DNA from: Mycobacteriales bacterium
GTDB lineage: Bacteria > Actinomycetota > Actinomycetes > Mycobacteriales > SCTD01
DNA: 46,535 bases
Direction: 5' to 3'
NCBI GenBank assembly: GCA_049694795.1
Contig: JBAVRG010000452.1
Location: forward strand, 1 to 46,535
Shown here: piece by piece, positions 2,676 through 18,867 of the stretch
Position numbering within the stretch: the stretch's first letter is position 1
How the letters are laid out: every line of letters starts with the position of its first letter
Notes under the pieces: model-generated
The model's database searches: none
What the model was told of the DNA's origin: nothing
What the model saw: only the letters and a program-made list of their open reading frames with translations
Translations under genes and position numbers: made by a program

Positions 2676-2881
2676 GACAGCCTCTCCAGTGCGACTCCGG
2701 CGTGGACGAGGAGCACCTCACCAGGCCGGGAGCCCCCCACGAGCTCGAGCGCGACGAGCTCCTCCCGACCCGATGGGTCCTGACAGCGGGCGTCGGTCCC
2801 GAGGACCTCCACGACCGTCAGGGCGAGCGCGACGTCGCCGCAGGTGATGCAGCTCCCGGAGGCGTCGCAGCTGCTGCTCAC
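2672..2881 (-). CDS. HypC/HupF-family chaperone paralogue with Cys-rich N-terminal extension
   Basis: 69 aa. HypC-like OB-fold core (..VALALTVVEVLG..LVALELVGG..GEVLLVHAGVALERL) is preceded by MSSSCDASGSCITCGD. GTGA overlap with the hypC stop and ATGA overlap with the hypD start. Confidence 0.75.
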   Translation of the reverse strand: MSSSCDASGSCITCGDVALALTVVEVLGTDARCQDPSGREELVALELVGGSRPGEVLLVHAGVALERLS

Positions 2882-3153
2882 TCGATGCTCGACTCTGCGA
2901 CGGCAGCCAGCTCGTCGGTGAAGCTCTGGCCCATCATCTCCAGCATCGACAGGGCTTCTGCGGCCTCCTTCTCGTCGATCCTCGACATCGCGAAGCCGAC
3001 GTGGATGAGGACCCAGTCGCCCACCTCGAGCGTCGTGTCCTCCAGCAGCCCGACGTTGATCTTGCGCTTGACGCCGACGACGTCGACGAGCGCGAGCTGG
3101 TCGAACGTGCCCTCGACGAAGGACACCACCTCACCGGGGATCGCGAGGCACAT
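2878..3153 (-). CDS. hypC: Hydrogenase assembly chaperone HypC/HupF
   Basis: Start re-set to the ATG giving the obligatory N-terminal MCLAIPG. GGAGGGAG lies 5-6 nt upstream, and the ORF-track ATG at 3168 sits inside that RBS. Product is 91 aa. Confidence 0.9.
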   Translation of the reverse strand: MCLAIPGEVVSFVEGTFDQLALVDVVGVKRKINVGLLEDTTLEVGDWVLIHVGFAMSRIDEKEAAEALSMLEMMGQSFTDELAAVAESSIE

Positions 3154-3154
3154 G

Positions 3155-3541
3155 TCAGCTCCCTCCATGGGTGTGCGCGGCCACCGGCTCGCCGGCGCCC
3201 TCGCGGCCGTCGACGTACTCGAGCCACTCGAGCACCACCTCGTCGCCGCCGGTCACGACGACCTCGAGCGAGCCGCAGCGGGGGCAGGCCGAGCCAGGGT
3301 CGGACGTCGTGAAGTCCTCGCTGCAGTCCCAGCAGTGCCCCTGCGCCGGGACGACGGTCAGCTCCGTCAGGGCCTGCTCGGCGACCCCGCCCACAGCGGC
3401 GAGCGCGAAGGAGTGGGCGAACGCTGCCGCCACCACGCGGTGCACGCAGCCGATGCGGACCCCGACGCGTGCCACCCGACGGCCGTGGGCGCGGCGCTCC
3501 ACCGCCTCGAGGGCGGCCTCGGCGTAGCTGAGCTCGTGCAC
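3155..3541 (-). CDS. hypA: Hydrogenase nickel incorporation protein HypA
   Basis: 128 aa with the N-terminal MHE nickel motif and CWDC...CPRC zinc site. GTG start shares 1 nt with the stop of the upstream microprotein. Confidence 0.9.
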   Translation of the reverse strand: MHELSYAEAALEAVERRAHGRRVARVGVRIGCVHRVVAAAFAHSFALAAVGGVAEQALTELTVVPAQGHCWDCSEDFTTSDPGSACPRCGSLEVVVTGGDEVVLEWLEYVDGREGAGEPVAAHTHGGS

Positions 3542-3662: not shown

Positions 3663-4139
3663 TCAGCCCTTCCTCACAGGGACACCCAGCTCGGAGGTGA
3701 GCAGGGCAAGGACGGCGTCGACGGCGCGCGGGACGGCGTCCGCGACGGGCTCCGACAGGCCGATGTGCTCCTCGAGGTTGCCGGGCTCGCAGCCGACGAC
3801 GAAGGTGCGCGGCAGGTGGCCGCCGAGCTGCCCCAGGCCGGCGAGGACGTCGGTCGGCGTCATGCCGTGCGCGTCCAGCGCTGCCGTGCCGACGTCGTCC
3901 GGCCCGACCTCGAGCACGTGGATGTCACCGGGGCTCCCGTTGCGCGGGAGCGCGTCCACCAGCACGAGCCCGTCGTAGCCGGCCAGCAGGTCGTAGGCGA
4001 GGTGCATGCCGCGGATCCCGTAGTCGACGACCGTGACGTCGGGCGGGAGCATCACCTGCCCCAGCTCGCGGGCCACCTCCGAGCCGAAGCCGTCGTCCCC
4101 CAGGAAGACGTTGCCGATGCCGGCCACGAGGACGGTCAT
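3663..4139 (-). CDS. hupD: [NiFe]-hydrogenase maturation endopeptidase (HupD/HyaD/HybD family)
   Basis: Start re-set to MTVLVAGIGNVFLGDDGFG, the canonical protease N-terminus, with an ATGA overlap at 4136-4139. Product is 158 aa. Confidence 0.9.
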   Translation of the reverse strand: MTVLVAGIGNVFLGDDGFGSEVARELGQVMLPPDVTVVDYGIRGMHLAYDLLAGYDGLVLVDALPRNGSPGDIHVLEVGPDDVGTAALDAHGMTPTDVLAGLGQLGGHLPRTFVVGCEPGNLEEHIGLSEPVADAVPRAVDAVLALLTSELGVPVRKG

Positions 4140-5422
4140 GGCAGCGGCTCGATCTCGTCGGGCCGGAAGTAGCTGAACCGGCCGTACCACTCGTGCAGGT
4201 CGCTCGCCGGGTCGTCGTCCACCGTGACGGCGACGTGGGTGCCCCCGTCGACGTCGCTCAGCACGCTCGTGACGGTGGCGGTCAGCCCGGTGAGGAACAT
4301 GTCCTGGGCGTCACCGCCGGCCCGCGGCCGCAGCCGCACCCGCGAGCCCCTCGCCACCGGCACGCCGTCGACGAGGACGCTGTCGGTCTCGGGGGAGACC
4401 GACGCGTCCTGGCCCGGATCCCACCAGGGGACGTCCTGGGGCGCCCCGCCGGGCAGGTCGCGCAGGGCCCCGTGCAGCCGGGCCATGACCTCAGGCGGCA
4501 GGCCGTCGCAGCGGTCGATGATGGCGGCCGCGCGCGCGTCGGTGCCCCTGGCCGCGACCTTCTCCTCGTCGGTGAGGGTCATGACGCGCAGGGTGAGGAT
4601 CTCGTCGATCTCGGTCGCGTCGAAGAGGTCACCGGCGCTCTCCGGGGCGATCGCCGGGTGGTCCGGCAGGATGATCGGCGAGACCAGTACGGCGTCCTGC
4701 CCGTCGTCGTCGGCGACGAGGACCGGCCAGCAGCGCTCGTTGACGCAGCCGTGGCCCGGGGTCTCCGTGAGGGACAGCGGCCGGCCGCCTCGCACGGTGA
4801 GCAGCAGGTGGGTGCCGACGAAGGACGCGCGCGCGGTGGTGTCCCGGCGGGCGGTGCCGTCCCAGGGCGTGAGGTTCTCGACCCGGACGTGCAGCACGGC
4901 CTGGCGGTCGGCCGCCGGCCGCGAGGAGAGGCTGAGCAGGCCGGAGAGGGGCTGACGGGTGCGGACGAGCCGACCGACGACGGTGCCGTCATGGTGCACC
5001 TGCTCGTGCTCCACGCCGCCGGGGACGTCGACCGGCACGGTCACGCCCTCGGCCAAGGCGCGCAGCGAGGTCCCGAGCACCTGCAGCTCCTGCTCCGTGG
5101 CCTCCTGCCAGGGGATCCAGCAGGTGTGCCCGACCCGCAGCTCCGGGACCGGCACGCCGTCGACCTCGACGGTGCGCTCCAGGACCTGCAGGAAGCGCAG
5201 GTGCACGTCGAGCTGCAGCTCCTGCGTCGCCGCGAGCTCCACGAGGCACTCGGCCTGCATCGCGGGTTGCTCGCCCGCACCACTGGCCTGCGCGCCGGGC
5301 GGCCCCAGGATGCCGAACTGCCAGCGGACCTGGTTCTTGGGCGAGCTGGCGCGGTAGGGGTAGAGCAGGTAGCCCTCGTAGAGCACGGCGTCGGCGACCG
5401 CCCGGGCGGCGGTGAGCGTCAT
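4136..5422 (-). CDS. Hydrogenase-operon protein of unknown function (428 aa)
   Basis: Start re-set to MTLTAARAV.. via the ATGA overlap at 5419-5422. High GC3. No motif I can assign, no signal peptide and no TM helix. Confidence 0.8.
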   Translation of the reverse strand: MTLTAARAVADAVLYEGYLLYPYRASSPKNQVRWQFGILGPPGAQASGAGEQPAMQAECLVELAATQELQLDVHLRFLQVLERTVEVDGVPVPELRVGHTCWIPWQEATEQELQVLGTSLRALAEGVTVPVDVPGGVEHEQVHHDGTVVGRLVRTRQPLSGLLSLSSRPAADRQAVLHVRVENLTPWDGTARRDTTARASFVGTHLLLTVRGGRPLSLTETPGHGCVNERCWPVLVADDDGQDAVLVSPIILPDHPAIAPESAGDLFDATEIDEILTLRVMTLTDEEKVAARGTDARAAAIIDRCDGLPPEVMARLHGALRDLPGGAPQDVPWWDPGQDASVSPETDSVLVDGVPVARGSRVRLRPRAGGDAQDMFLTGLTATVTSVLSDVDGGTHVAVTVDDDPASDLHEWYGRFSYFRPDEIEPLP

Positions 5423-6060
5423 GGGCTGGCCACCTCCTGCCCCTCGAGCAGCGCGGTGACGGTCTGCTCCCAGCTGGTGAGCCCACGCGCGGACCGGTAG
5501 CGCACCAGCGCGTCCAGGGCCTCGCGGTCCAGCCGGATCCAGCCGCTGCCCGGGAACCACTGGTCCATGAGCGCGCCCCACGTGGCCACGGGCATCCGGC
5601 AGGAGGCCTGCAGCGACCACGGCAGCTGCTCGACCGCGAAGCCGGTGCTGCCGCGCGTGAAGACGGTGCCGCCGAACAGCAGCTCCAGCGGGACCTCGCC
5701 CTCGCGCAGCGCCTGGAGGTACTTGGAGGCGGTGACCTCGAAGTCGTAGGTGCAGGCCACCGGCAGGTCCACCTCCTGGACGCCCTGGAAGCCCTGCACC
5801 AGCGTGGAGGCGTGCGCCCACAGGAACGGCTTGAGCGTCTGGAACCACCGCTCGGAGCCCCCGAACAGGTCCACCAGGCCGGCCCGCTCGTCGTCGCCGT
5901 ACGGGCGTCGCTGGGGGTGCACCATGACCTGCGCGCGCAGCGCCAGGGCGTGCACGACGGCGCCGGAGGTCTCGCTGAGCCGGAGCCGGAACAGCAGGTG
6001 CGGCGCGACGGCGAAGGGCTCGGGCAGCACGTCCAGCACCTCGATCGACAGGTTCGTCAT
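5419..6060 (-). CDS. Hydrogenase-operon protein of unknown function (213 aa)
   Basis: Start re-set to MTNLSIEVLDV.. via the ATGA overlap at 6057-6060. High GC3 and no recognisable motif. Confidence 0.8.
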   Translation of the reverse strand: MTNLSIEVLDVLPEPFAVAPHLLFRLRLSETSGAVVHALALRAQVMVHPQRRPYGDDERAGLVDLFGGSERWFQTLKPFLWAHASTLVQGFQGVQEVDLPVACTYDFEVTASKYLQALREGEVPLELLFGGTVFTRGSTGFAVEQLPWSLQASCRMPVATWGALMDQWFPGSGWIRLDREALDALVRYRSARGLTSWEQTVTALLEGQEVASP

Positions 6061-6674
6061 GGCGCCGGCCTCGCCCGTGCGCGGACGTCGGCGAAGAAGG
6101 CGTCGAGCCGGCGGTGCACGTCCTGGCCGCCGTCGAAGCCGCGCCAGAGCCGGCGCAGGTGCCCGACCAGCTCGTAGCAGGCGTCGATCGGCACGAGGAA
6201 GCACTCGGCGGAGCTGTCGGTCGCCCGCAGCAGGAGGGCCTCGACGTCCGGCCTCAAGGTGGCCAGTGCGGGGTGACGGGCGGCGACCCGGTCCCAGCTG
6301 TCGAGCGGCAGCTCCGACTCGGTGGCCCCTGCCGGGCTCGGGTAGAAGGCGACGACCCGTTCGAGGCCGGAGTGCGCGAACAGGAACACCGTCGACACCG
6401 GCACCTGCAGCTCGTCCCACTCCCCGGGAGCGAGCTCGACGTCCGGGAACGACAGGTAGCGGTCCGGAACGGCGCGGTAGGCGAGCGCCGCGTCGTCGTG
6501 CGTGAAGAGCAGGTAGCACGGGCGGCAGCTGCACAGCAGCGCCCGGCTGCCCACGTTGACGACGTGCTGGTGCTGCTCGGCGATCCGCTCACCGCACAGG
6601 TCGCAGCGCTCGCCGGGGTCAGCCTGCGGTCGCGCCGCCGCGAGGCGGGCCAGGACCGACAGGCCGGCGCTCAT
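6057..6674 (-). CDS. Hydrogenase-operon Cys-motif protein of unknown function (205 aa)
   Basis: ATGA overlaps at both ends. Carries CDLCGE...LLCSCRPCYLLF, i.e. CxxC plus CxCxxC. Confidence 0.8.
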   Translation of the reverse strand: MSAGLSVLARLAAARPQADPGERCDLCGERIAEQHQHVVNVGSRALLCSCRPCYLLFTHDDAALAYRAVPDRYLSFPDVELAPGEWDELQVPVSTVFLFAHSGLERVVAFYPSPAGATESELPLDSWDRVAARHPALATLRPDVEALLLRATDSSAECFLVPIDACYELVGHLRRLWRGFDGGQDVHRRLDAFFADVRARARPAP

Positions 6675-7543
6675 GCCAGCGCCGGGCTGGGCACAGCGAC
6701 CTCGACCCGCCCGTCCCGCACGAGCAGGGGGAGCGGCTCAAGGTGCTCGCCGGGGTGGTCGGTGGAGGTCCCCGCCCGCCGCACGTCGTAGTGCGCGCGA
6801 CAGGCCGGGCAGGTCAGCACCGGCTCGCGGCCGCCGACGGTGCGCTCGACCGCGGCCCCGTCCAAGGGGGCGGTGCAGTGCGGGCACTGCGGCCTGAAGG
6901 CGTAGAGGTCCGCGCCGATCCGGGTGGCGACCAGGGTGAGGTCACCGGCCTGCACCGCAGCGGCACGGCCCACCGGGACGTCCTCCGGGGCGCCGACGGG
7001 CTGCCAACGCGCCGGCAGGCGGGCGGTGAGCGCCGCGACGGGGATGACCGCGGGGCCGGCCGGCGCCTCCTCCAGCTCGATGGCCAGGACCTCCGGTGCG
7101 GCGTCGCGGATCGCGCTCTCGACAGCCAGGGTCAGGGTCACCGACGACGACGGGCAGCCGTCGCAGCTGCCCGTCATCCGCAGCAGGGCCACCCCCTCGT
7201 CGGTGACGCCCACGAGGTGCACGTCACCGCCGTGCGACCCGAGGTAGGGACGGACCGCGGCCAGCGCCCTCTCGACGCGCTCCTGGACCGACCACGGGTG
7301 CAGCCCGTGCACCAGCAGCAGGCTCGCCACCAGCTCGTCGCCGGCGAGGTCGTCCAGCAGCTGCTCGGTCAGGGCGCCGCGCTCGTAGGCGAGGTCGAGC
7401 ATCCGCTCGAGCCCTGCGCCGTAGAGGTCGACGACGAGCCGGACCAGCTCCTCGGCCCGCTCCCGGGCCACCGGGCCGCCGGTGGCGCTGGCCTCCAGCA
7501 GCTGCTCGATGCGCTCGCCCGTCGCGCGCGGGTCGGCCGTCAC
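6671..7543 (-). CDS. hhyE: NifU-like plus Rieske-like iron-sulfur protein (HhyE/HucE-type)
   Basis: 290 aa. The central NifU C-terminal domain motif is GGDVHLVGV..LRMTGSCDGCPSS. The C-terminal part has CPH..(25)..CRAH, a Rieske-like CxH / CxxH pair within CPHC / CPAC. It lies immediately downstream of the large subunit. Confidence 0.8.
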   Translation of the reverse strand: MTADPRATGERIEQLLEASATGGPVARERAEELVRLVVDLYGAGLERMLDLAYERGALTEQLLDDLAGDELVASLLLVHGLHPWSVQERVERALAAVRPYLGSHGGDVHLVGVTDEGVALLRMTGSCDGCPSSSVTLTLAVESAIRDAAPEVLAIELEEAPAGPAVIPVAALTARLPARWQPVGAPEDVPVGRAAAVQAGDLTLVATRIGADLYAFRPQCPHCTAPLDGAAVERTVGGREPVLTCPACRAHYDVRRAGTSTDHPGEHLEPLPLLVRDGRVEVAVPSPALA

Positions 7544-7550
7544 ACCGTGC

Positions 7551-9347
7551 TCATTCGGTGCCGGTCGACGCTGCCGTGGGGGTGTGCAGGCGCTCCAGCG
7601 TCTTGCCGCCCCCCAGGTACATGTGGACCCCGCACGGCAGGCACGGGTCGAAGCTGCGGACGGTCCGCATGATGTCGATGCCCTTGAACTTGTCGCGGGT
7701 GTTCTCCTCGAACAGCGGCTGCCCCTGTACGGCGTCCTCGTACGGACCGGGCGTGCCGTAGGCGTCCCGTGGGTTGGCGTTCCAGGGCGTCGGCGGGTAC
7801 GGGTGGTAGTTCGCGATCTTGCCGTCCCTGATCACCATGTGGTGCGACAGCACGCCGCGCACCGCCTCGGTGAACCCGCACCCGATCGCCTCGTCGGGCA
7901 CCTCGAACTTCTCCCAGGTCTTCGTGCGCCCCGCGCGGATCTCGGCCAAGGCCTTCTCCGCGAAGGTGAGGGCGCAGGCCGCCGCGTAGGCCTGGAAGTA
8001 GGTCCGGGCCCTGTTGCGCTCGAGGGTGTTGCTCCACTGCGGGATCTTCCACTCGAGGTCGACAGGGCCCTTGAGCGCGGTCTTGGGCAGGTGGATCTGC
8101 ACGCTGTGCCCGGTGGCCTTGACGTAGTCGGTGCTGACCAGGCCGGCGAGCGCTGTCGACCACAGCCGGGCGAGCGGACCGCCCCCTGTGTCGAGGGCGA
8201 GGTGGTCGCTGCCGTCGAACCAGCGCGGCGACATGACCCAGCTGTACTTGTCGTCGAAGTCGCGCTTCTGCGGCTGGGGGTTGGTGTGCTGGTTCCAGGG
8301 GTGCCGGCGGTCGACCGGGTTGCCCAGCGGGTCCTGGGTCACGAACATCTCCTGGTCCGACCAGTCGTCGTAGAACGAGCTGCCGAGCAGGATCCGGATG
8401 CCCAGGTTGATGTCGACCAGGCTGGTCGTGACGAGGTTGCCGTCGACGACGACGCCGGGGGTCACGAACATCCGGCGGCCCCACTGCTCCATGTCCCTGT
8501 AGGAGAAGTTGCAGACCTCGGGGTCCTGGAACGATCCCCAGCAGCCGAGCAGGGTGCGACGCAGGCCGACCTGCTCGTAGCCGGGCAGCGCGTCGTAGAA
8601 GAAGTCGAACAGGTCGTCGTGCATCGGCACGACCTTCTTCATGAACTCCACGTAGCGCATCAACCGGGTGGTGTAGTCGGTCATCAGCTGGACGGTCGCG
8701 ACCGTCCCCACGCCGCCGGGGTAGAGGGTCGACGGGTGGACGTGCCGGCCCTCCATGAGGCAGAACATCTCCCGGGTCCACCGGCTCACCTGCAGGGCTT
8801 CCCGGTAGAACTCGCCGGTGAACGGGTTGAGCGCCCGCATGATGTCGGCGATGGTCCGGTAGCCGTGCGTGTCCCGCCCCGCGGCCGGGGTGTTCTCCGC
8901 CTTGGCGAGCACCGACGGGTTGGTCTCGGCGACCATCCGCTCGCAGTAGTCCACCCCGACCAGGTTCTCCTGGAAGATGTTGTGGTCGAACATGTACTCC
9001 GCGGCCTCACCGAGGTTGACGATCCACTCGCCGAGGTGCGGCGGCTGGACGCCGTACGCCATGTTCTGGGCGTAGCAGGAGCAGGTGGCGTGGTTGTCGC
9101 CGCAGATGCCGCAGATGCGGCTGGTGATGAAGTGCGCGTCCCGCGGGTCCTTGCCCTTCATGAAGATGCTGTAGCCGCGGAAGATCGACGAGGTGCTGTG
9201 GCACTCGGCCACGGTGTTGTTCGCGAAGTCGATCTTCGTGTAGATGCCGAGGCTTCCCACGATGCGGGTGATCGGGTCCCACGCCATCTCGACGAGGCCC
9301 TTGTCGTCCTTGCTCGTCGTGCCGCGCTGCGGGAGTGTCGTCGTCAT
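7551..9347 (-). CDS. hhyL: [NiFe]-hydrogenase large subunit, group 1h (high-affinity, Hhy-type)
   Basis: 598 aa with L1 motif TSRICGICGDNH and L2 motif SFDPCLPCGVH, followed by a 23-aa C-terminal extension that is the protease substrate. GAGGAAG RBS. Confidence 0.97.
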   Translation of the reverse strand: MTTTLPQRGTTSKDDKGLVEMAWDPITRIVGSLGIYTKIDFANNTVAECHSTSSIFRGYSIFMKGKDPRDAHFITSRICGICGDNHATCSCYAQNMAYGVQPPHLGEWIVNLGEAAEYMFDHNIFQENLVGVDYCERMVAETNPSVLAKAENTPAAGRDTHGYRTIADIMRALNPFTGEFYREALQVSRWTREMFCLMEGRHVHPSTLYPGGVGTVATVQLMTDYTTRLMRYVEFMKKVVPMHDDLFDFFYDALPGYEQVGLRRTLLGCWGSFQDPEVCNFSYRDMEQWGRRMFVTPGVVVDGNLVTTSLVDINLGIRILLGSSFYDDWSDQEMFVTQDPLGNPVDRRHPWNQHTNPQPQKRDFDDKYSWVMSPRWFDGSDHLALDTGGGPLARLWSTALAGLVSTDYVKATGHSVQIHLPKTALKGPVDLEWKIPQWSNTLERNRARTYFQAYAAACALTFAEKALAEIRAGRTKTWEKFEVPDEAIGCGFTEAVRGVLSHHMVIRDGKIANYHPYPPTPWNANPRDAYGTPGPYEDAVQGQPLFEENTRDKFKGIDIMRTVRSFDPCLPCGVHMYLGGGKTLERLHTPTAASTGTE

Positions 9348-9411: not shown

Positions 9412-10467
9412 CTACCAGGTGCGGGTGGCGCCTGAGGTGAGCTGGGTGCCGGGCTTGCGCCACTTGGGCTCGGCGTTCAGCGTCGCGATCGTGCGCGAGC
9501 GCAGCGCGCGGATCGTCTGGCCGTACAGGCCGATCGACGTCGTCGACAGCTTGCCGCCCGGGGGCTCGTCCATGAACGGCATGAACTTGTCCGGGAAGCC
9601 AGGCATGGTGCAGCCGATGCAGATGCCGCCGACGTTGGGGCAGCCTCCGACGCCGTTGACCCAGCCGCGCTTGGGCACGTTGCACTTCACGACCGGGCCC
9701 CAGCAGCCGAGCTTGACGATGCACTTCGGGGTGCCGTGCTCGGTGGCGAAGTCGCCCTGCTCGTAGTAGCCCGCGCGGTCGCACCCCTCGTGCACCGTGC
9801 TGCCGAACAGCCAGGTGGGCCGCAGCTGGTCGTCGAGCGGGATCATCGGGGCCTGGCCGGTGGCCTGGTAGAGCAGGTAGGTGATCGTCTCCGACAGGTT
9901 GTCCGGCTGGATCGGGCAACCCGGCACGCAGACGATCGGCAGACCGGCCTTGGACTTCCAGTCCCAGCCCAGGTAGTCGGGCACCCCCATCGCGCCGGTC
10001 GGGTTGCCTGCCATGGCGTGGATGCCGCCGTACGTCGCGCAGGTGCCCACCGCGAGGACTGCGAGAGCCTTCGGGGCCAGGCGGTCCAGCCACTCGCTCG
10101 TCGTGACCGGCTGACCGGTCATCGGGTCGTTGCCGAAGCCGCACCAGTAGCCGTCGCCGTGCAGGGCTTCGTTGGGGATCGAGCCCTCCACCACCAGGAC
10201 GAAGGGCTCGAGCTCTCCGCGGTCGGCCTTCCAGAACCACTCGAGGAAGTCGTCCGCGCCGCCGGTGGGGCCGCACTCGAAGTCGATGAGCGGCCAGTGG
10301 ACCGCCACTTTCGGCAGCCCCGGCAGGGCCCCGAGGGCGATCTCCTCGATGCTGGGCTGGGTCGCGGCGGTGAGGGCGACGGAGTCGCCGTCACAGCTCA
10401 GGCCGGCGTTGATCCACAAGACGTGGATGAGGGTGTCTTCTGCGGTGATCGCCTCGGCAGTGGGCAT
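9412..10467 (-). CDS. hhyS: [NiFe]-hydrogenase small subunit, group 1h, no Tat signal
   Basis: Start re-set to MPTAEAIT.. with GAGGAGGGGG upstream. Motifs are LWINAGLSCDGD (CxGD where standard enzymes have CxGC), GTCATYGG, GCP and the distal Cys cluster CIGCTMPGF. Confidence 0.93.
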   Translation of the reverse strand: MPTAEAITAEDTLIHVLWINAGLSCDGDSVALTAATQPSIEEIALGALPGLPKVAVHWPLIDFECGPTGGADDFLEWFWKADRGELEPFVLVVEGSIPNEALHGDGYWCGFGNDPMTGQPVTTSEWLDRLAPKALAVLAVGTCATYGGIHAMAGNPTGAMGVPDYLGWDWKSKAGLPIVCVPGCPIQPDNLSETITYLLYQATGQAPMIPLDDQLRPTWLFGSTVHEGCDRAGYYEQGDFATEHGTPKCIVKLGCWGPVVKCNVPKRGWVNGVGGCPNVGGICIGCTMPGFPDKFMPFMDEPPGGKLSTTSIGLYGQTIRALRSRTIATLNAEPKWRKPGTQLTSGATRTW

Positions 10468-10593
10468 GAGGCCCCCTCCTCGCGAGATCCCATGGACCTC
10501 GGTGCGACCCGAACCCGGCGTCGGCATTCGGGCTTGCGGGCCGCTGCCTTCGAGGGATATACCCGGTCACTCACGACTGTCAACGGCGGCGAC
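10468..10593. promoter_or_regulatory. Divergent hhyS / hypF intergenic region (promoters expected)
   Basis: 126-bp gap between divergent start codons, with an AT-richer patch (GGGATATACCC) and a short inverted repeat CCCGAA-N13-TTCGGG. No confident -10/-35 assignment. Confidence 0.4.
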
Positions 10594-12825
10594 ATGACCC
10601 TTACCGGGACAGCACAGCGGATCCAGGTCCGGGTGTCGGGCGTCGTGCAGGGGGTCGGTTTCCGACCGTTCGTCTGGAAGGCCGCGACCGATCTCGGGCT
10701 CTCCGGATGGGTGCACAACGACGCTGAGGGGGTGCTGCTCGAGGTCGAGGGCCCGCCTTCCGGGCTCGACGACCTGGTGCGCGCGCTGGTCGAGCGGCCC
10801 CCTCCGCTGGCGCGCGTCGACAGCGTGCGCGCCCTGCCTGTCGCAACCACCGGGGAGCGCGGCTTCGCGGTCCGCGACAGCCACCTGGAAGGGCCGCGGG
10901 TGGCCCTGGTCGCTGCCGACGCCGCCACGTGTCCCGCCTGCCTCGGCGAGCTCGCCGACCCTGCCGACCGGCGCTACCGCTACCCGTTCGTGAACTGCAC
11001 GCACTGCGGGCCGAGGTACACGATCGTCCGGTCCGTGCCGTACGACCGGGCCCGCACGACGATGGCGGGTTTCGCGCTGTGCCCGGACTGCCGTCGCGAG
11101 TACGACGACCCCGCCGACCGGCGCTTCCACGCCCAGCCCGTCTGCTGCCCGGCCTGCGGCCCGCAGCTGTCCATGCCGGTCACGGAGGCTGCGGACCGGC
11201 TGCACGCGGGGCAGGTGCTCGCGGTGAAGGGGCTCGGGGGCCTGCACCTCGCGGTGCTCGCGTCCGACGAGGACGCGGTCGCCCGGCTGCGGGCCCGCAA
11301 GCACCGGGAGGAGCGGCCCTTCGCCCTGATGGTGCGCGACCTCGCAGCCGCGCTGGCGCTCTGCGAGGTGGAGCCTGCGGAGGAGGCCCTGCTGACGAGC
11401 GCGGCGCGGCCCATCGTGCTGCTCCGCCGACGCGGCTCGGGGGTGGCACCGTCGGTCGCCCCGCACCAGCGGTTCCTCGGGATCATGCTGCCGTACACCC
11501 CGCTGCACCACCTGCTGCTGGAGGCCGTCGACGCCCCGCTCGTGATGACCAGCGGCAACCGGAGTGACGAGCCGATCGTCTTCCGGGACGAGGACGCACA
11601 CGAGCGGCTGGACGGCATCGCCGATGCGTTCCTCACGCACGACCGCCCCATCGAGACGCGGGTCGACGACTCGGTGCTGCGCGTGGTGCGGGGGCGGCCG
11701 GTGCCGATCCGGCGCTCGAGGGGCTACGTGCCCGGCGCTGTCGCGCTGCCGTGGCGGCTGCGGCGCCACGTGCTGGCCTGCGGTGGCGAGCTCAAGAGCA
11801 CCTTCGCCCTCGGCCGCGACGAGCACGCCTTCGTGTCGCACCACATCGGTGACCTCGACAGCTGGACGACCTTCCAGGCCTACCTGCACGGCATCACCCA
11901 CCTGCAGCGGCTCCTGGACGTCCGTCCCGAGCTGGTCGCCCACGACCTGCACCCGGACTACGCGTCGTCCCGCTACGCGCAGGAGCTCGACGGGGTGGAG
12001 CTCGTCGGCGTGCAGCACCACCACGCGCACATCGCCTCCTGCCTCGTGGACAACGGCCGGGAGGGGCCGGTCATCGGGGTCGCCTTCGACGGCACCGGGC
12101 TGGGCGCCGACGGCACGGTGTGGGGTGGTGAGCTGCTCCTGGCCGACCTGCGGACCGCTGAGCGGGCGGGTCACCTGCGCCCGGTGCCGCTCCCCGGAGG
12201 CGACCGGGCCGTGCGCGAGCCGTGGCGGATGGCGGCCGCCTACCTGCAGGAGGCGTACGGCGAGACCCCGCCGGACCTGCCGCTCCGGCACCGGCACCCG
12301 AGGTGGCAGCACGTCCTCGCCGCGGCCGGCGCGGGGGTCAACGCCCCGCCCACCTCCAGCGCCGGCCGGCTGTTCGACGCGGTCGCCGCGGTGCTCGGGG
12401 TGCGCGACGTCGCGTCCTACGAGGGGCAGGCGGCCATCGAGCTCGAACAGCTCGCGGAGCCAGGTGCCGGGGCCTACCCGGTGGTGCTCGACGGCGCCGT
12501 GCTCGACGGCGTCGTGCTGTTCCGGCACTGCGTCGAGGACCTGCTCGCGGGCACGCCCGTCCCGGTGGTCTCTGCGCGCTTCCACGACACCCTCGCGGCC
12601 ACGGTGGCGCATGCCTGCGAGCTGCTGAGGGAGCGGTCCGGCCTGGGCACCGTCGCCCTGTCCGGAGGTGTCTGGCAGAACGCGCTGCTGCTCTCGCGGG
12701 CTCTGGAGCTGTTGGAGGACAAGGGCTTCGAGGTCCTGACGCATCGCCAGGTGCCGTGCAACGACGGTGGGCTCAGCCTGGGCCAGCTCGCGGTCGCGGG
12801 GGCGCTGGACCGCGGGTCCGGATGA
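10594..12825 (+). CDS. hypF: Carbamoyltransferase HypF
   Basis: Start re-set to MTLTGTAQRIQVRVSGVVQGVGFRP (acylphosphatase domain). Two CxxC-X18-CxxC zinc fingers follow (CPACLGE..CTHCGPR, CPDCRRE..CPACGPQ), then YrdC-like and Kae1-like domains. Product is 743 aa. Confidence 0.95.
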   Translation: MTLTGTAQRIQVRVSGVVQGVGFRPFVWKAATDLGLSGWVHNDAEGVLLEVEGPPSGLDDLVRALVERPPPLARVDSVRALPVATTGERGFAVRDSHLEGPRVALVAADAATCPACLGELADPADRRYRYPFVNCTHCGPRYTIVRSVPYDRARTTMAGFALCPDCRREYDDPADRRFHAQPVCCPACGPQLSMPVTEAADRLHAGQVLAVKGLGGLHLAVLASDEDAVARLRARKHREERPFALMVRDLAAALALCEVEPAEEALLTSAARPIVLLRRRGSGVAPSVAPHQRFLGIMLPYTPLHHLLLEAVDAPLVMTSGNRSDEPIVFRDEDAHERLDGIADAFLTHDRPIETRVDDSVLRVVRGRPVPIRRSRGYVPGAVALPWRLRRHVLACGGELKSTFALGRDEHAFVSHHIGDLDSWTTFQAYLHGITHLQRLLDVRPELVAHDLHPDYASSRYAQELDGVELVGVQHHHAHIASCLVDNGREGPVIGVAFDGTGLGADGTVWGGELLLADLRTAERAGHLRPVPLPGGDRAVREPWRMAAAYLQEAYGETPPDLPLRHRHPRWQHVLAAAGAGVNAPPTSSAGRLFDAVAAVLGVRDVASYEGQAAIELEQLAEPGAGAYPVVLDGAVLDGVVLFRHCVEDLLAGTPVPVVSARFHDTLAATVAHACELLRERSGLGTVALSGGVWQNALLLSRALELLEDKGFEVLTHRQVPCNDGGLSLGQLAVAGALDRGSG

Positions 12826-12850: not shown

Positions 12851-14047
12851 CTACTGACCCGCAGCACCCTGGCTGAGGCGGTCCTGCACCGCTTCCCAGA
12901 GCACGTGGTAGAGCGTCGTCTGCACCTCCTGGATGCGGTGCACCGACGAGGACGGGACCACGAACAGGTGGTCGACCATGCCCTGGTCGCGCATCGCGCC
13001 GCCGTCGTAGCCGGCCAGGCCGACCGTGACGAGGCCGAGCTCGCGGGCAGTGCGCAGGCCGGCGAGGACGTTGCCCGAGCCGCCGCTGGTCGACACCGCG
13101 AAGGCGATGTCACCCGGGCGTGCGAGGGCCCGCAGCTGCCGGGCGAAGACCACGTCGAACCCGACGTCGTTGGCGAGTGCGGTCAGCACCGCCACGTCGT
13201 TGGTGAGGCACAGCGCCGGCAGCGCGCGCCCGCGGCTGGGGGCGAGGAACGTCTGGACGACGTCCTGGGTGTCGGTGCTGCTGCCGCCGTTGCCGAAGGC
13301 GATCAGGGTGGCCCCGGCGGCGAAGGCCTCCGCCAGCCGGTCCGCGCAGCGGTCGATCTCGGCACCGTCCAGTGCGGCGCGCAGCTGGGCGACGTCGGTG
13401 AGCTTGTCGCGGCTGGAGGTGGTCGCGCTCGTCTCCAGACCGGTGTGGCTGCTCCCGGACAGGAACGGGTAGAGCGCAAGCGCCGGGTCGTCGTCGACGA
13501 CCGCGGCCGGAGGGTCGAGGAAGACGTGCACCAGCTCCCACAGCAGGTGGTAGGCCGAGACGTGTCCCTCCTTCACCACTCCCGGGTCGTCGCTCGGCAC
13601 CACGACCACGTGGTCGGCCGCGACGGGCGCGGCGGCCAGGGCCACCGTCAGCAGGCCTCGCTCATGTGCCGCCTGCAGACCCTCCAGGAGGGCGCTGTCC
13701 GGCGTGCTGCGGGTGATGGCCAGCGCGATGTCCTGGGGACGGCTGAGGACCTCGAGCTGCGCGGCGAAGACGGCAGTCGGGTCCGTTCGTGCCAGCTCGG
13801 TGAGGGTGGCGACGTCGGCGACGAGGGACAGGGCAGGCAGGGCGCGCTTGCCCACGATCACCGGGTGCAGGAACTCCACGGCCACGTGCTGGGCGTCGGT
13901 GGCGGACCCGAGGACGAGCAGCCGGCCGCCGGCGGCGAACCGGTCGGCCATGTCGCGGGCGGCCGCGGTCAGCAGCTCGGCGTGCGCGCGCAGGTGGTCG
14001 ACCGGGGCGACCCGGCGACCGAGGACCTCGCCTGAGTGCAGCGTCAC
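12851..14047 (-). CDS. Tandem SIS-domain protein (GmhA / phosphoheptose-isomerase-like, duplicated)
   Basis: 398 aa in two SIS halves. The C-terminal half keeps FGNGGSSTD and VSTSGGSGNV. The N-terminal half is degenerate (LGSATD, TRSTPDS). Confidence 0.8.
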   Translation of the reverse strand: MTLHSGEVLGRRVAPVDHLRAHAELLTAAARDMADRFAAGGRLLVLGSATDAQHVAVEFLHPVIVGKRALPALSLVADVATLTELARTDPTAVFAAQLEVLSRPQDIALAITRSTPDSALLEGLQAAHERGLLTVALAAAPVAADHVVVVPSDDPGVVKEGHVSAYHLLWELVHVFLDPPAAVVDDDPALALYPFLSGSSHTGLETSATTSSRDKLTDVAQLRAALDGAEIDRCADRLAEAFAAGATLIAFGNGGSSTDTQDVVQTFLAPSRGRALPALCLTNDVAVLTALANDVGFDVVFARQLRALARPGDIAFAVSTSGGSGNVLAGLRTARELGLVTVGLAGYDGGAMRDQGMVDHLFVVPSSSVHRIQEVQTTLYHVLWEAVQDRLSQGAAGQ

Positions 14048-14125: not shown

Positions 14126-15457
14126 TCAGACCCCCGCGAGCCGGTGCCTCGGCCGCAGGTAGACCGCCCACGTGACGACCACGCACACCAGGTAGAAGGC
14201 GATGAACGCGAGGTAGGCGCCGTCGGCCCTGCCGGTGTCGAGGAACGACTGGCGGAAGGCGACGTTGACCAGCACACCTCCGAAGGCCCCGACGGCCCCG
14301 GCGATCCCGATGAGGGCACCGGACATCCGACGTGCCTCCGCGTAGGTCGACCGGGTCGCCTTGAAGATGGCCGGGATCATCTTGTACGTCGACCCGTTGC
14401 CGACGCCGGACAGGGCGAACAGCGTCACGAAGCCGACGAGGTACAGGTCGAGCGAGTGCTGCTGCGACGCGGCCAGCACGACCGCCCCGGCACCGGCCAT
14501 GGCGATGAAGTTGAGCGCGGTGACGCGGGCGCCGCCGAACCGGTCGGCGAGCAGGCCGCCGACCGGGCGGATCAGGGAGCCGATCAGCGGGCCGAGGAAG
14601 GTGAGGTAGGCGGCGTCCAGCGGCGTGGCGAACTCGGTCTTGAACTGCACGGTGAGGACCTGGCCGAAGGCGAAGCCGAAGCCGATGAACGACCCGAAGG
14701 TGCCGATGTAGAGCAGCGACATGACCCAGGTGTTCCTGTCCTTGCAGACGTCGCGCATCGCGCGCTTGTCGTTGCGCGCCCCGGCGAGGTTGTCCATGGC
14801 GAACCACGCGAGGCCGGCGGCGAGCACCACGAGCGGGACGTAGCTGCCGATGAGCAGCCGCGGGTGCGCCTTGCCTGCGGTGGCGAGGACGAGCAGGGCC
14901 ACCAGCTGCACGGCGGCCACGCCGACGTTGCCGCCGCCCGCGTTCAGGCCGAGTGCCCGGCCCTTCAGCCGGTCCGGGTAGAACGCGTTGATGTTCGCCA
15001 TGGACGAGGCGAAGTTGCCCCCGCCGACACCGGCCAGCCCGGCCACCAGGAGCAACGTGTCGAGGGACACGCCCGGCTTGAGCACCGCGAGCATCGCGAC
15101 GAGGGGCAGCAGCAGGAGCAGGGCGCTGATCACCGTCCAGTTGCGCCCGCCCAGCTTGGCGACGGCGAACGTGTAGGGCAGGCGCAGCACCGAGCCGACC
15201 AGGGCAGGGACGCTGGTCAGCAGGAACTTGTCGGCGGGCGTGAAGCCGTACTTCGGGCCGAGGAACAGCACCAGCGACGACCACATCGTCCACACCGAGA
15301 AGCCGATGTGCTCCGAGAAGATGGAGAACACCAGGTTGCGGCGGGCGACCCGCTTCCCGGTCGCCTCCCAGAACGCCGGGTTCTCCGGCTCCCAGTCGTC
15401 GATCCACCTGCTGCGCGGCGCCTCTGGGGCGAGGCGGGTCTCCAGCGTTGCCGTCAT
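14126..15457 (-). CDS. narK: MFS nitrate/nitrite transporter NarK/NasA-type
   Basis: 443 aa and multi-TM with a NarK-like N-terminus (..NLVFSIFSEHIGFSVW..GGRNWT..). AGGAGG lies 5 nt upstream of the ATG. Confidence 0.9.
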   Translation of the reverse strand: MTATLETRLAPEAPRSRWIDDWEPENPAFWEATGKRVARRNLVFSIFSEHIGFSVWTMWSSLVLFLGPKYGFTPADKFLLTSVPALVGSVLRLPYTFAVAKLGGRNWTVISALLLLLPLVAMLAVLKPGVSLDTLLLVAGLAGVGGGNFASSMANINAFYPDRLKGRALGLNAGGGNVGVAAVQLVALLVLATAGKAHPRLLIGSYVPLVVLAAGLAWFAMDNLAGARNDKRAMRDVCKDRNTWVMSLLYIGTFGSFIGFGFAFGQVLTVQFKTEFATPLDAAYLTFLGPLIGSLIRPVGGLLADRFGGARVTALNFIAMAGAGAVVLAASQQHSLDLYLVGFVTLFALSGVGNGSTYKMIPAIFKATRSTYAEARRMSGALIGIAGAVGAFGGVLVNVAFRQSFLDTGRADGAYLAFIAFYLVCVVVTWAVYLRPRHRLAGV

Positions 15458-15538
15458 CCGTTCCTCCTGTGCTCGGGAATGGCGGCGAACGCTAGGGACG
15501 GCGGAAGACGCCCAGGTGTCGGCCGACGACCGCCGCGG

Positions 15539-16681
15539 TCACATCTCCCGCACGCCGGGCGACAGGGGCTGTGAGGGCTCGGCCAGCCGGTAGCCGCGCT
15601 TGACCACCGTCTGCACGACCTTGCCCGCCGGGCCGAGAGCGGTGCGCAGCCGGGCGACCGTCATCTCGACGGCGTGCTCGTCGGCTGGTTCGTCACGCCA
15701 GGCCGTCCTGAGCAGCTCGGCCCGGGACAGCACCCGCCCCTTGCTCGACACCAGGGCGGACAGCACGCCGGACTGCCGGGCGGTGAGCTCCACGGGCCGG
15801 CCGTCCACCAGCACGCTGTGCCCCCGCAGCCGCAGCTCGTGCGGGCCTGCCTGCACCGCCCGGGTCCGCCGTACCGGCAGCTCCTCGACGACGGTGCGGA
15901 CCAGCGCTCCCAGCCGGGCGCGCTCGGGCTGCACCGTCGGCACACCCAGCTGCTCGAGCGGTGCCGCGGTGACCGGACCGACGCACGCTGCCAGGACGTC
16001 GCCGCGAAGGGCAGCGAGGAGGGCGTCCCGGCGGCCGTCCTCGGCTGCCACGGACAGCATGCTGGCGACCGCCGGTGCGGAGGTGAACGTCACGCAGTCG
16101 ACCTGGGTGGCCGCCACCTGCTCGACGAGGCGGCGCAGCGGACGGATGTCCTCGGCAGGCACCCACCGGTAGACCGGCACCTGCACGACGGTGGCACCCG
16201 CGCGCTCGAGCGCGGTGACGAAGCCCGGCAGCGGCTCGCCATGCAGCTGCACGGCCACCCGCCGGCCGACCACGCCCTCCGCGAGCAGCCGGGCGAGCAC
16301 CTCCTCCGACGACTCCGAGTCCGGCGACCAGGCCTCGGCCAGCCCGGCGGCGCGCACTGCGCCCTTCGCCTTGGGGCCGCGCACGAGCAGCTCGGCCCTG
16401 GCGAACTGGGCCCGCAGCGGCTCGCCGAGTCCCCAGCCGTCGGCCGCCTCCATCCAGCCGCGGAAGCCGATGCCGGTGGTGGCGACGACGACGTCGGGTG
16501 GCTCCGTGATGCAGGTCTCGGTCGCCGCCCGGAGCAGGTCGTCGTCGCCGGTCGGGATGATCCGGATCGCCGGCGCCTCCGTGACGCGCGCACCGCGGCG
16601 TTGCAGGAGCGCGCTGAGCTCCTCACGACGGCGGGCGGCGGTCACCGCGACGGTGAACCCGGCCAGGGGCAGCTCTTCCAC
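15539..16681 (-). CDS. Uroporphyrinogen-III synthase (HemD)-like domain fused to OmpR/PhoB-type winged-helix DNA-binding domain
   Basis: The N-terminal ~270 aa are HemD-like (LAGFTVAVTAARR.., two Rossmann-like halves). The C-terminal ~100 aa are trans_reg_C-like (LTARQSGVLSALV..VLSRAELL..DEHAVEMTVARLR..VVKRGYRL). There is no receiver domain. The GTG start at 16681 is my choice and is uncertain by a few codons. Confidence 0.8.
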   Translation of the reverse strand: MEELPLAGFTVAVTAARRREELSALLQRRGARVTEAPAIRIIPTGDDDLLRAATETCITEPPDVVVATTGIGFRGWMEAADGWGLGEPLRAQFARAELLVRGPKAKGAVRAAGLAEAWSPDSESSEEVLARLLAEGVVGRRVAVQLHGEPLPGFVTALERAGATVVQVPVYRWVPAEDIRPLRRLVEQVAATQVDCVTFTSAPAVASMLSVAAEDGRRDALLAALRGDVLAACVGPVTAAPLEQLGVPTVQPERARLGALVRTVVEELPVRRTRAVQAGPHELRLRGHSVLVDGRPVELTARQSGVLSALVSSKGRVLSRAELLRTAWRDEPADEHAVEMTVARLRTALGPAGKVVQTVVKRGYRLAEPSQPLSPGVREM

Positions 16682-16703
16682 GCCTCCACCGTGCCTGCCG
16701 CTC

Positions 16704-16812
16704 GTTACCTGGCTGTTTCCGCCGGGTGTCGGCCAGCACCGCACACCGTGAGCCCTGCGGCTTGAGCACCTCGTCACCTGCCTGACACACACGGGACACG
16801 GCTCTGAGACAC
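16704..16812. promoter_or_regulatory. Divergent nitrate-assimilation control region with phased GnnAC pentamer arrays
   Basis: Array 1 reads GnnAC on the minus strand: plus-strand GTTAC 16704, GTTTC 16715, GTGTC 16726, spaced exactly 11 bp. Array 2 reads GnnAC on the plus strand: GTCAC 16773, GACAC 16784, GACAC 16795, GACAC 16808. Confidence 0.5.
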
Positions 16813-16824
16813 CGGCCGCCCACG

Positions 16825-18867
16825 GTGGTCCCCATGCCCGTCCCGACGCACTGCCCCTACTGCGCACTGCAGTGCGGCATGACCCTGAGCCCGACAGGTG
16901 AGGTCGGCGCCGGAGCCGGGGGGCTGTGCCGCAAGGGGTGGACGTCGGCCGACCTGCTCGCCAGTCCCCAGCGGCTGACCACGCCGCTGGTGCGCGATCG
17001 CAAGGGCGGACCGCTGCGGACCGCGACGTGGGACGAGGCCCTCGACCGCGTCGTCGCCGGCATCCGTACGGCGCAGCAGGCCGGTCCGGACGGCGTCGCG
17101 GTCTTCGGTGGTGGCGGACTGACCAACGAGAAGGCCTACCTGCTGGGGAAGTTCGCCCGGGTCGTGCTGCGCACGAGCCAGATCGACTACAACGGCCGCT
17201 TCTGCATGAGCTCGGCTGCCGCCGCTGCCAACCGCGCCTTCGGGCTGGACCGGGGGCTGCCGTTCCCGCTGGAGGACCTGGGGGAGGCCGGCTGCGTGCT
17301 GCTGGTCGGCAGCAACCCGGCGGAGACGATGCCGCCGTTCGTGCAGCACCTCCAGCGGATGCGGGCGGCAGGGGGCTCGCTGGTCGTGGTCGACCCGCGG
17401 CGCACCCCGACGGCGGAGACGGCCTCGCTGCACCTGGCCCCCCAGCCGGGCACCGACCTCGCGCTGGCCAACGGGTTGCTGTTCGTGGCGCTCGACGAGG
17501 GGCTTGTCGACGAGGGCTACGTCGCGGCCCGCACCTCCGGCTTCGACGCCGTCCTCGCGACGGTCGCGGCCTGGTGGCCGGCTCGGGTCGAGCGGGTCAC
17601 GGGGGTCTCCGAGCCGGACCTGCGCCGCACGGTGCGGCTGCTCGCCGGCTCCCCGCGAGCGATGGTCCTCACGGCGCGCGGGGCCGAGCAGCACGCGCAC
17701 GGCGTCGACACGGCGACGGCGTGGCTGAACCTCGCGCTGGCTCTGGGTCTGCCGGGCACGCCCGGCGCCGGCTGGGGCACCCTGACCGGTCAGGGCAACG
17801 GCCAAGGCGGTCGTGAACACGGTCAGAAGGCCGACCAGCTGCCCGGCTACCGCCACATCAGCGACCCGGCCGCGCGGGCCCACGTCGCCGCCGTGTGGGG
17901 GGTCGCCCCCGAGGACCTTCCCGGCCCGGGTCGCAGCGCGTACGAGCTGCTGGACAGCCTCGGCGACGGTGGGGGACCGACGGCCCTGCTGCTGCTGGGC
18001 TCCAACCCGGTCGTCAGCGCCCCCAACGCCCGCCACGTCGCCCAGCGCCTTGCGTCCCTGGACACCCTGGTGGTGAGCGACCTGGTGCTGTCCGAGACCG
18101 CCGCCCTCGCGGACGTCGTGCTCCCCACGACCCAGTGGGCCGAGGAGAGCGGCACCACCACGAACCTCGAGGGACGTGTCCTGCTGCGGCGCAAGGCGCT
18201 CGACGCCCCGCTCGGGGTGCGCAGCGACCTGGAGCTGCTGCACGCGCTCAGCGCGCGGCTCGGCGTCACGACGGGCTTCCCCACGGACGCCCGGGAGGTG
18301 TTCGAGGAGCTGCGCCGCGCGTCCGCCGGTGGCGTCGCCGACTACGCCGGCATCAGCCACGAGCGCCTCGCCGCGGGGGAGCGCCTGCACTGGCCCTGCC
18401 CGTCCGAGGAGCACCCCGGCACACCGCGGCTGTTCCTCGACGGCTTCGCCACCCCGGACGGGCGGGCCCGCTTCGTCGCGGTCGACCAGCCCGAGGAGGT
18501 CGAGCCCGTCAGCGAGGCGTTCCCGCTCCGCCTGACGACAGGAAGGGTCGCCATGCAGTACCAGTCCGGGGCGCAGACCCGGCGCATCGACGCGCTGCCC
18601 GGTGACGCCTACGTCGAGCTGCACGAGGACCTGGCCCTCCGGCTCGGCATCGCCGACGGTGAGCGGGTCAAGGTGACGACGGTGCGGGGGAGCGCGTGGC
18701 TCGCCGCCCGGGTCACCGACGCGATCCGGCCCGACACCGTCTTCGTCCCGTTCCACTGGGCGGGCAAGAAGCGCGCCAACAGCCTCACCGCCTCCTGGCT
18801 CGACCCGGTGTCGAAGATGCCGGCGTTCAAGGCCTGCGCGGCGCGGGTCGAGCGGGTGCACGCATGA
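16825..18867 (+). CDS. nasA: Assimilatory nitrate reductase catalytic subunit (molybdopterin oxidoreductase, NasA/NasC/NarB type)
   Basis: 680 aa with N-terminal CPYCALQCG..C FeS motif, MGD-binding domains and a C-terminal MopB barrel. The start is GTG 16825 or ATG 16834. Confidence 0.92.
   Translation: MVPMPVPTHCPYCALQCGMTLSPTGEVGAGAGGLCRKGWTSADLLASPQRLTTPLVRDRKGGPLRTATWDEALDRVVAGIRTAQQAGPDGVAVFGGGGLTNEKAYLLGKFARVVLRTSQIDYNGRFCMSSAAAAANRAFGLDRGLPFPLEDLGEAGCVLLVGSNPAETMPPFVQHLQRMRAAGGSLVVVDPRRTPTAETASLHLAPQPGTDLALANGLLFVALDEGLVDEGYVAARTSGFDAVLATVAAWWPARVERVTGVSEPDLRRTVRLLAGSPRAMVLTARGAEQHAHGVDTATAWLNLALALGLPGTPGAGWGTLTGQGNGQGGREHGQKADQLPGYRHISDPAARAHVAAVWGVAPEDLPGPGRSAYELLDSLGDGGGPTALLLLGSNPVVSAPNARHVAQRLASLDTLVVSDLVLSETAALADVVLPTTQWAEESGTTTNLEGRVLLRRKALDAPLGVRSDLELLHALSARLGVTTGFPTDAREVFEELRRASAGGVADYAGISHERLAAGERLHWPCPSEEHPGTPRLFLDGFATPDGRARFVAVDQPEEVEPVSEAFPLRLTTGRVAMQYQSGAQTRRIDALPGDAYVELHEDLALRLGIADGERVKVTTVRGSAWLAARVTDAIRPDTVFVPFHWAGKKRANSLTASWLDPVSKMPAFKACAARVERVHA

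Follow-up and report, generated by a model that had tools for sequence, protein, structure and literature searches.

What do three genes of no assigned function do in the core of a hydrogenase operon? The question is raised by contig JBAVRG010000452.1 of a Mycobacteriales bacterium (assembly GCA_049694795.1), a stretch of 46,535 nucleotides that was analysed whole and is referred to here as the window. Its minus strand carries a complete group 1h [NiFe]-hydrogenase operon, from hhyS down to hypE, in which a trio of genes stands between the gene for an HhyE-like protein and that for a maturation endopeptidase of the HupD/HycI family. The trio encodes a DUF5947 protein of 205 amino acids (aa; 6057-6674), a DUF6084 protein of 213 aa (5419-6060) and a protein of 428 aa (4136-5422). 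A first-pass annotation, made from the letters alone, proposed three candidate roles for these genes: enzyme assembly, nickel delivery or coupling to the respiratory chain. Assembly is favoured by the natural gene fusions described below, respiratory-chain coupling is still a live rival, and the case for nickel delivery is weak. The trio and HhyE may well form a soluble, group-1h-specific complex for late maturation and assembly, a reading that is held tentatively and whose mechanism we infer throughout.

In the uptake of atmospheric H2 by soil, a major part is ascribed to group 1h hydrogenases (PMC7174314, PMC6883350). The trio bears on two questions about these enzymes, namely their assembly in air and the transfer of their electrons to the respiratory chain. 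Its members belong to large gene families that are nearly always attached to a group 1h enzyme.

Gene fusions involving the trio

Fusions were surveyed in the 150 best representatives of the 428-aa family, and ten clearly over-long ones were scanned. In seven representatives, each from its own 50%-identity cluster, the 428-aa protein is joined in frame, through a short linker, to a HycI/HupD protease (P0379, P0381, P0402, P0424, P0428, P0443 and P0439). In four of the seven clusters there are two or three members of full length, and one of these four draws its members from JGI as well as NCBI. At locus L083, the fusion is the sole protease gene called on the fetched 18-kb stretch, and the 1h operon is otherwise normal. 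Proteases of the HycI/HybD/HupD type have one known job, which is to cut the C-terminal tail from the nickel-loaded large-subunit precursor.

A different pair of fusions is found in the lineage of P0491, a 765-aa protein that consists of DUF6084 followed by the 428-aa protein and represents a cluster of 28 members. In this lineage hhyL is followed by a 375-aa fusion of an HhyE-like protein with DUF5947, the first ~165 residues being homologous to HhyE (E 3e-9) and the remainder DUF5947. The cluster of this second fusion has 22 members, and all 15 of those listed are 375 aa long. One lineage thus makes the four proteins as two polypeptides, and elsewhere the 428-aa protein is tied to the protease.

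Apparent fusions can also be artefacts, as seen in loci from metagenome-assembled genomes (MAGs) with MFD names. The one at L003 (8699-11368) was set aside for a frameshift inside DUF6084 and the one at L057 for displaced matches that suggest frameshifts, as do matches at L017; fusion counts from such assemblies call for caution. A read-through from DUF5947 into DUF6084 at L036 is a probable error, being the lone fused sequence among the 15 listed of a 23-member cluster, in which the other 14 measure 217-221 aa.

The fusions bear on the main rival reading, rather unlikely on the evidence as a whole, in which the trio is a redox and membrane-coupling module. The DUF5947 protein, carrying an iron-sulfur (Fe-S) cluster, would take electrons from the distal cluster of HhyS, and the DUF6084 and 428-aa proteins would dock the enzyme to the membrane or to menaquinone. 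That the trio is grouped with the structural genes, ahead of the protease gene, agrees with such a module, but the repeated in-frame joining of the 428-aa protein to the protease does not. A permanent subunit for electron transfer is a less easy explanation of a protein so often, and viably, fused to the protease than is a second factor in maturation.

Between the protease and hypA, the lineages with fused genes carry a DUF6893 gene of 34 aa together with one for a YceI-like protein (L083, 9935-10565; L084, 4252-4873). YceI-like proteins are polyisoprenoid- or quinone-binding proteins of the lipocalin type, and this neighbour could bear on quinone coupling.

Conserved gene order and translational coupling

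A genome scan with the 428-aa family returned more than 583 loci, of which the best 80 are called the related loci. Almost all of these come from Actinomycetota, including Mycobacterium, Nocardia, Rhodococcus, Arthrobacter and Frankiales. The order hhyS-hhyL-hhyE-DUF5947-DUF6084-428aa-hupD is present in 80/80, where the contig reaches far enough. An identical order is annotated on the Cupriavidus necator plasmid pHG1 (PHG064-PHG070) and occurs on a Methylocystis parvus plasmid; plasmid matches were also obtained in Streptomyces, Kitasatospora and Embleya. The expectation that the trio goes with group 1h hydrogenases in actinobacteria (Mycobacterium, Streptomyces, Nocardia, Rhodococcus) and on the Cupriavidus megaplasmid was borne out. 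Mirror-tree distance correlations over 35 loci were left unused, as shared phylogeny dominates them and the HhyS and HypC sets are noisy.

The gene boundaries in the window are sound. With the starts that the first-pass annotation had re-set to 6674, 6060 and 5422, translation of the minus strand gives 205, 213 and 428 aa, each running to a stop. These starts match those of homologues, since the DUF6084 model fits its protein from residue 1 onwards and alignments of all three proteins with their homologues start at corresponding residues. The flanking genes are as had been claimed, with the NifU and Rieske-like gene upstream and the HycI-family protease downstream, and ATGA overlaps are read on the minus strand at 6674-6671, 6060-6057, 5422-5419 and 4139-4136. 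Such 4-nucleotide (nt) overlaps are not peculiar to the trio, as the hypC/hypC-like and hypC-like/hypD junctions overlap likewise.

In the related loci, the overlap of 4 nt is kept between hhyE and DUF5947 in 44/76, between DUF5947 and DUF6084 in 59/75 and between DUF6084 and the 428-aa gene in 66/79. The junction of the 428-aa gene with hupD behaves differently, with the overlap in 16/68 loci and a gap of more than 100 nt in 38/68. The conserved coupled unit is therefore HhyE-DUF5947-DUF6084-428 aa, because the overlap with hupD is kept in so few loci. The coupling with the hydrogenase genes, as inferred earlier from the overlaps, is conserved for the block from hhyE to the 428-aa gene and is much less so at the protease junction, where the overlap is often missing elsewhere. 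Overlaps inside the four-gene block in 58-84% of loci fit equimolar co-production of its proteins. In nine loci (L004, L005, L010, L021, L023, L038, L040, L043 and L052) an extra small, acidic, low-complexity open reading frame lies between the 428-aa gene and hupD; its common motif is PPYEGRKESADV ... GGA ... TPRGAxASPADEQPA, and the frame is absent from the window.

Gene content also speaks to a second rival reading, in which the trio replaces HypB and brings nickel to HypA or HhyL. No hypB was detectable within the 46.5-kb window by tblastn with pHG1 HypB, and it was from this gap that nickel delivery had been argued. The 428-aa protein does have invariant histidines (H205, H317 and H396; its cysteines vary) and acidic motifs (DATEIDE, DAQD and DVDGxTH) that might suit a nickel carrier. 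The argument from the missing gene is nevertheless weak, as hypA-hypB stands beside hhyS in 50/80 related loci with the same trio, and the pHG1 cluster has hypB3. No P-loop GTPase, CobW or HypB domain was matched in the trio by Pfam. As the MAG behind the window is incomplete, hypB may sit elsewhere in the genome, and the gap probably reflects only the gene arrangement of the clade or MAG incompleteness. A nickel-supply role is thus highly improbable.

Properties of the three proteins

The DUF5947 protein matches PF19372 over its full length (E 2.2e-74; 249.4 bits versus a cut-off of 25), with residues 23-200 aligned on model positions 1-176 of 177. The CxxC...CxCxxC pattern that had been noticed in it, made up of CDLCGE (C24, C27) and LLCSCRPC (C48, C50, C53), is real and forms part of a larger N-terminal Cys5His2 cluster, C24-x2-C27-x7-H35-x-H37-x10-C48-x-C50-x2-C53. 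All seven residues are invariant in 43/43 database homologues and in 78/78 sequences of a second alignment, built from the window protein and its homologues in the related loci. The set is also kept in the pHG1 and Methylocystis homologues, and C166 is nearly invariant. In the AlphaFold2 (AF2) model of this protein, the predicted local distance difference test score (pLDDT) is 68, with low confidence in the Cys region, and Foldseek found no structural match at E<0.05. The Pfam search returned only weak matches to zinc-ribbon-like DUFs for this pattern, such as DUF7576 in 24/43 homologues at E~0.05. The site is a candidate Fe-S, Fe or Zn site, among which sequence cannot tell.

The seven invariant Cys and His residues count in favour of the redox module. 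Two properties of the trio count against that role: Pfam recognises no canonical ferredoxin, Rieske or cytochrome domain in it, nor a rubredoxin domain in the DUF5947 pattern, and its hydropathy reveals no hydrophobic or amphipathic membrane anchor. The absence of transmembrane helices noted in the first-pass annotation for the DUF6084 and 428-aa proteins holds, with no 19-residue segment above a Kyte-Doolittle value of 1.6 and no twin-arginine motif in any of the three proteins. The enzyme itself gives the redox module some ground, since Hhy associates with the membrane but has no transmembrane segments, and its link to menaquinone calls for an explanation (bioRxiv 10.1101/769216).

The DUF6084 protein matches PF19562 at full length (E 4.7e-87; 291.4 bits, with the cut-off at 25), its residues 1-210 covering positions 1-210 of the 213 in the model, and has 2021 homologue clusters. 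It had no match in the PDB by sequence or profile.

The 428-aa protein represents a large family without a model, as nothing scored above cut-off in the copies of Pfam (2025) and NCBIfam (2026) searched. The family comprises at least 7998 clusters at 90% identity and at least 4626 representatives at 50% identity (E<=1e-3), 1614 of them at E<=1e-30. Its AF2 model, with a pLDDT of 77, is predicted to consist of an N-terminal helix, a beta-sandwich (residues ~54-250, mean pLDDT mostly 80-97), a helical segment and a C-terminal SH3-like barrel. The most conserved stretches are AVLYEGYLLYPYRASxxKNQVRWQFG and APESAGDLFDATEIDEILTLR. They coincide with the invariant segments 15-34 and 261-279, whose pLDDT is below 50; this combination may reflect folding that depends on a partner, and disorder of the most conserved segments in the isolated model is as expected of partner-binding segments.

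Structural comparison of the 428-aa model yields a likeness of shape at its C-terminus. The last ~80 residues resemble PetP, a subunit of the cyanobacterial cytochrome b6f complex, and the C-terminal domain of nitrile hydratase beta; for these targets the Foldseek TM (template modelling) score on the target is 0.65-0.75 at E 0.02-0.1. With 13-25% identity and a very common fold, this is a similarity of shape and not evidence of homology or function. Apart from small SH3-like barrels, Foldseek matched only DrmA in the PDB (E 1.6e-5), which was discarded as uninformative (TM 0.22, root-mean-square deviation 24 A), and a Foldseek comparison with viral structures gave nothing useful. A partial match to the tail assembly chaperone family Phage_TAC_7 was also rejected: it scores 19.9 bits versus a cut-off of 25 over residues 268-317 only, recurs in 13/43 homologues, always under the cut-off, and has no support from the viral fold library.

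For the trio as a whole, sequence and profile searches, together with fold searches for the DUF5947 and 428-aa models, returned no match to any characterised protein. No PDB chain was matched by any of the three in phmmer and hmmsearch searches. The statement that the trio lacks a Hyp, Hup or Hox motif holds in Pfam, NCBIfam and hhalign tests. HypA-F, HupF/HypC, HupH, HyaE/HoxO, HybE/HoxQ, HupK/HoxV and rubredoxin families were without match in Pfam and NCBIfam, and no Hyp/Hup/Hox family emerged when 43 homologues of the 428-aa protein and 43 of the DUF5947 protein were run against Pfam at E<=1. Alignment with hhalign of the trio members with each other and with HhyE, HupD, HypC, HypD, HypE, HhyS and HhyL gave probabilities of 1.4% at most. 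The description of the genes as being of unknown function is correct insofar as no role was found, and it needs amending in that two of the three belong to the named Pfam families DUF5947 and DUF6084.

A proposed role in late maturation

In the assembly reading, the DUF6084 and 428-aa proteins would form a scaffold, bind the large-subunit precursor and act next to the endopeptidase HupD, by which the C-terminal tail of that precursor is taken off. The DUF5947 protein would work, through its Cys5His2 site, with the Nfu-type HhyE on an Fe-S cluster or metal. Together, HhyE and DUF5947 would keep this cluster or metal and pass it on to the small subunit, or shield it, during construction of the enzyme in air. 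It is conceivable, and put forward with somewhat more reserve than an assembly role as such, that HhyE, DUF5947, DUF6084 and the 428-aa protein make up a maturation machine of four proteins, not described before, that is physically tied to the endopeptidase and specific to the O2-insensitive 1h enzymes that oxidise atmospheric H2. If true, such a machine would explain how 1h hydrogenases are assembled in fully aerobic cells.

Properties of HhyE are consistent with this scheme. The window protein (6671-7543) has an Nfu-type NifU domain with CxxC at 127/130 (Pfam NifU 1.1e-20) and a C-terminal Rieske/rubredoxin-like domain with CPHC...CPAC (Pfam Rieske 3.1e-07). The nearest solved relatives of its NifU domain are Nfu-type Fe-S scaffold or carrier proteins, not electron carriers, which argues against the redox module as well. 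The Nfu-like character of HhyE and its fusion to the Cys/His-rich DUF5947 favour a place for the pair on the metal or Fe-S side, as far as sequence features can suggest one. HhyE is genetically required for Hhy activity and H2 oxidation in M. smegmatis (PMC6883350).

PHG067-069, the Cupriavidus counterparts of the trio, are not part of the crystallised Cupriavidus enzyme, because no PDB chain matches the trio even though PHG067-069 are 39-42% identical to the window proteins. Their absence from that enzyme is a further point against a redox module.

Several observations weigh against an assembly role. Operon neighbours can fuse without a direct mechanistic link. In the HhyE-like half of the 375-aa fusion at L085 (3035-4162) the NifU CxxC is lost, with GPGAGSRG in place of GSCDGCPSS, which weakens a simple Fe-S carrier role for HhyE; the DUF5947 Cys/His cluster is intact. 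HhyE is reported to co-localise with HhyL and HhyS on native gels (PMC6883350). The same paper relays, at second hand, a proposal that PHG067/MSMEG_2717 serves as an electron acceptor (PMC6883350). Finally, Methylacidiphilum fumariolicum SolV reportedly has an active high-affinity 1h hydrogenase without homologues of the trio or hhyE (PMC7174314, PMC6688271), and the set is therefore not universally required for 1h assembly.

Some of this evidence is shared with the redox module. That reading draws on published proposals for PHG067/MSMEG_2717, insofar as the sources relay them, and for the hypothetical proteins of the operon (PMC6883350, PMC7174314). The SolV operon has two hypothetical membrane proteins instead of the trio (PMC7174314, PMC6688271), and these could replace it functionally. 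The dispensability of the set in SolV (PMC7174314) is also compatible with some other hydrogenase-linked role, such as stabilisation or storage in dormancy, protection from or repair of O2 damage, or control of the oligomeric state. Group 1h enzymes work in starved, dormant cells (PMC6883350, PMC6776052), and the uninformative fold matches leave room for such functions. No positive evidence speaks for them, however, and the fusions to the protease and to an Nfu-like protein point to biogenesis; a role of this kind is accordingly improbable, if less so than nickel supply.

For the assembly reading, the fusions provide a falsifiable direction, towards processing of the large subunit and insertion of clusters into the small subunit. 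They also point to the proteins that should be co-expressed in the heterologous production of 1h hydrogenases.

The host hydrogenase and its neighbours

The operon encodes a group 1h [NiFe]-hydrogenase. The large subunit HhyL (7551-9347, minus strand, as are all genes of the operon) has the exact group 1h/5 signatures, L1 TSRICGICGDNH and L2 SFDPCLPCGVH, by the motif definition quoted in PMC5364354, and extends C-terminally beyond CGVH; the tail of its precursor measures 23 residues. Its identity to HofG of Cupriavidus pHG1 is 78%, and it matches PDB 5AA5 (HofG), the sole solved group 1h structure, at E=0. The small subunit HhyS (9412-10527; Pfam Oxidored_q6 and NiFe_hyd_SSU_C) was searched for a twin-arginine (Tat) motif and has none.

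Downstream of the trio follow the HupD/HycI-family endopeptidase (3663-4139; Pfam HycI 9e-16), hypA (3155-3541; Pfam HypA), hypC (2878-3168; Pfam HupF_HypC), a hypC-like gene (2672-2881; Pfam HupF_HypC), hypD (1554-2675; Pfam HypD) and hypE (470-1552; Pfam AIRS/AIRS_C). The second HypC-like gene is short (69 aa) and overlaps hypC by 4 nt; about a dozen of the 80 related loci have a match to it, mostly with the gene order of the window. On the plus strand, hypF (10600-12825, start approximate) diverges from hhyS; it has Acylphosphatase, zf-HYPF, Sua5 and HypF_C domains in Pfam, and pHG1 HypF matches window positions 10624-12786 by tblastn.

A gene for a tandem SIS-domain protein (12851-14047, minus strand) adjoins hypF. 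A SIS-domain gene is also found inside the hyp clusters of pHG1 and Methylocystis, and one lies no more than 10 kb away in 25/80 related loci (for example L081, 13939-14628; L082, 932-1621). Beyond it, positions 14126-22738 encode a major facilitator superfamily transporter, HemD (uroporphyrinogen-III synthase) joined to a DNA-binding domain of the OmpR type, a molybdopterin oxidoreductase and a nitrite/sulfite reductase of the NirB type, and look like a nitrate/nitrite assimilation cluster.

Comparison with known systems

The operon of the Cupriavidus membrane-bound hydrogenase, of the O2-tolerant group 1d, has extra maturation genes, hoxLOQRTV, between its structural genes and its protease and hyp genes. 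The block in the window takes the same place, which by analogy supports a function in maturation. The group 1d helpers (the HoxL/HoxV scaffold, the HoxO/HoxQ small-subunit chaperones, the rubredoxin HoxR, HoxT and Rhizobium HupF-K) resemble the trio in operon position and in serving one enzyme class in addition to the general Hyp proteins; the analogy is one of function. By the same analogy, the small Cys-rich DUF5947 protein may correspond to HoxR. The likeness does not extend to sequence, for which Pfam gives no relationship between the two sets, and the 1h small subunit has no Tat signal on which HoxO/Q-type chaperones could act.

Also comparable is HhyE/HucE, a putative iron-sulfur protein of the mycobacterial Hhy and Huc hydrogenases, which lies directly upstream, is translationally coupled to the trio and is fused to DUF5947 in one lineage. 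HhyE differs in having recognisable NifU and Rieske-like domains, of which the trio has none.

No function assigned to the trio was found in the literature searched, where genes of this kind recur under general names. PHG066-069 of pHG1 are recorded as of "unknown function" (PMC4377017), and acidobacterial clusters hold "conserved hypothetical proteins" (PMC5900883). In Thermomicrobium roseum, "conserved hypothetical proteins hhaABC" lie downstream of hhyLS and are upregulated in starvation (PMC6776052). The trio probably corresponds to hhaABC, judging by the description in that paper and not by the T. roseum sequence.

The closest counterpart is the set on pHG1. PHG067, PHG068 and PHG069 share 42%, 40% and 39% identity with the window proteins and match the window by tblastn at E 7e-40, 8e-53 and 2e-71. 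The window proteins, in turn, are of PHG067, PHG068 and PHG069 type by both homology and position between a NifU-like gene and hupD, and form an accessory set of that kind. Families and order are the same, the Cys/His residues and the motifs of the 428-aa family are kept, and there is no difference in kind; upstream of the set, PHG066 is without the C-terminal Rieske-like domain found in the window HhyE. The trio is thus an already recorded, uncharacterised accessory gene set, and the natural gene fusions are the new evidence on what it does.

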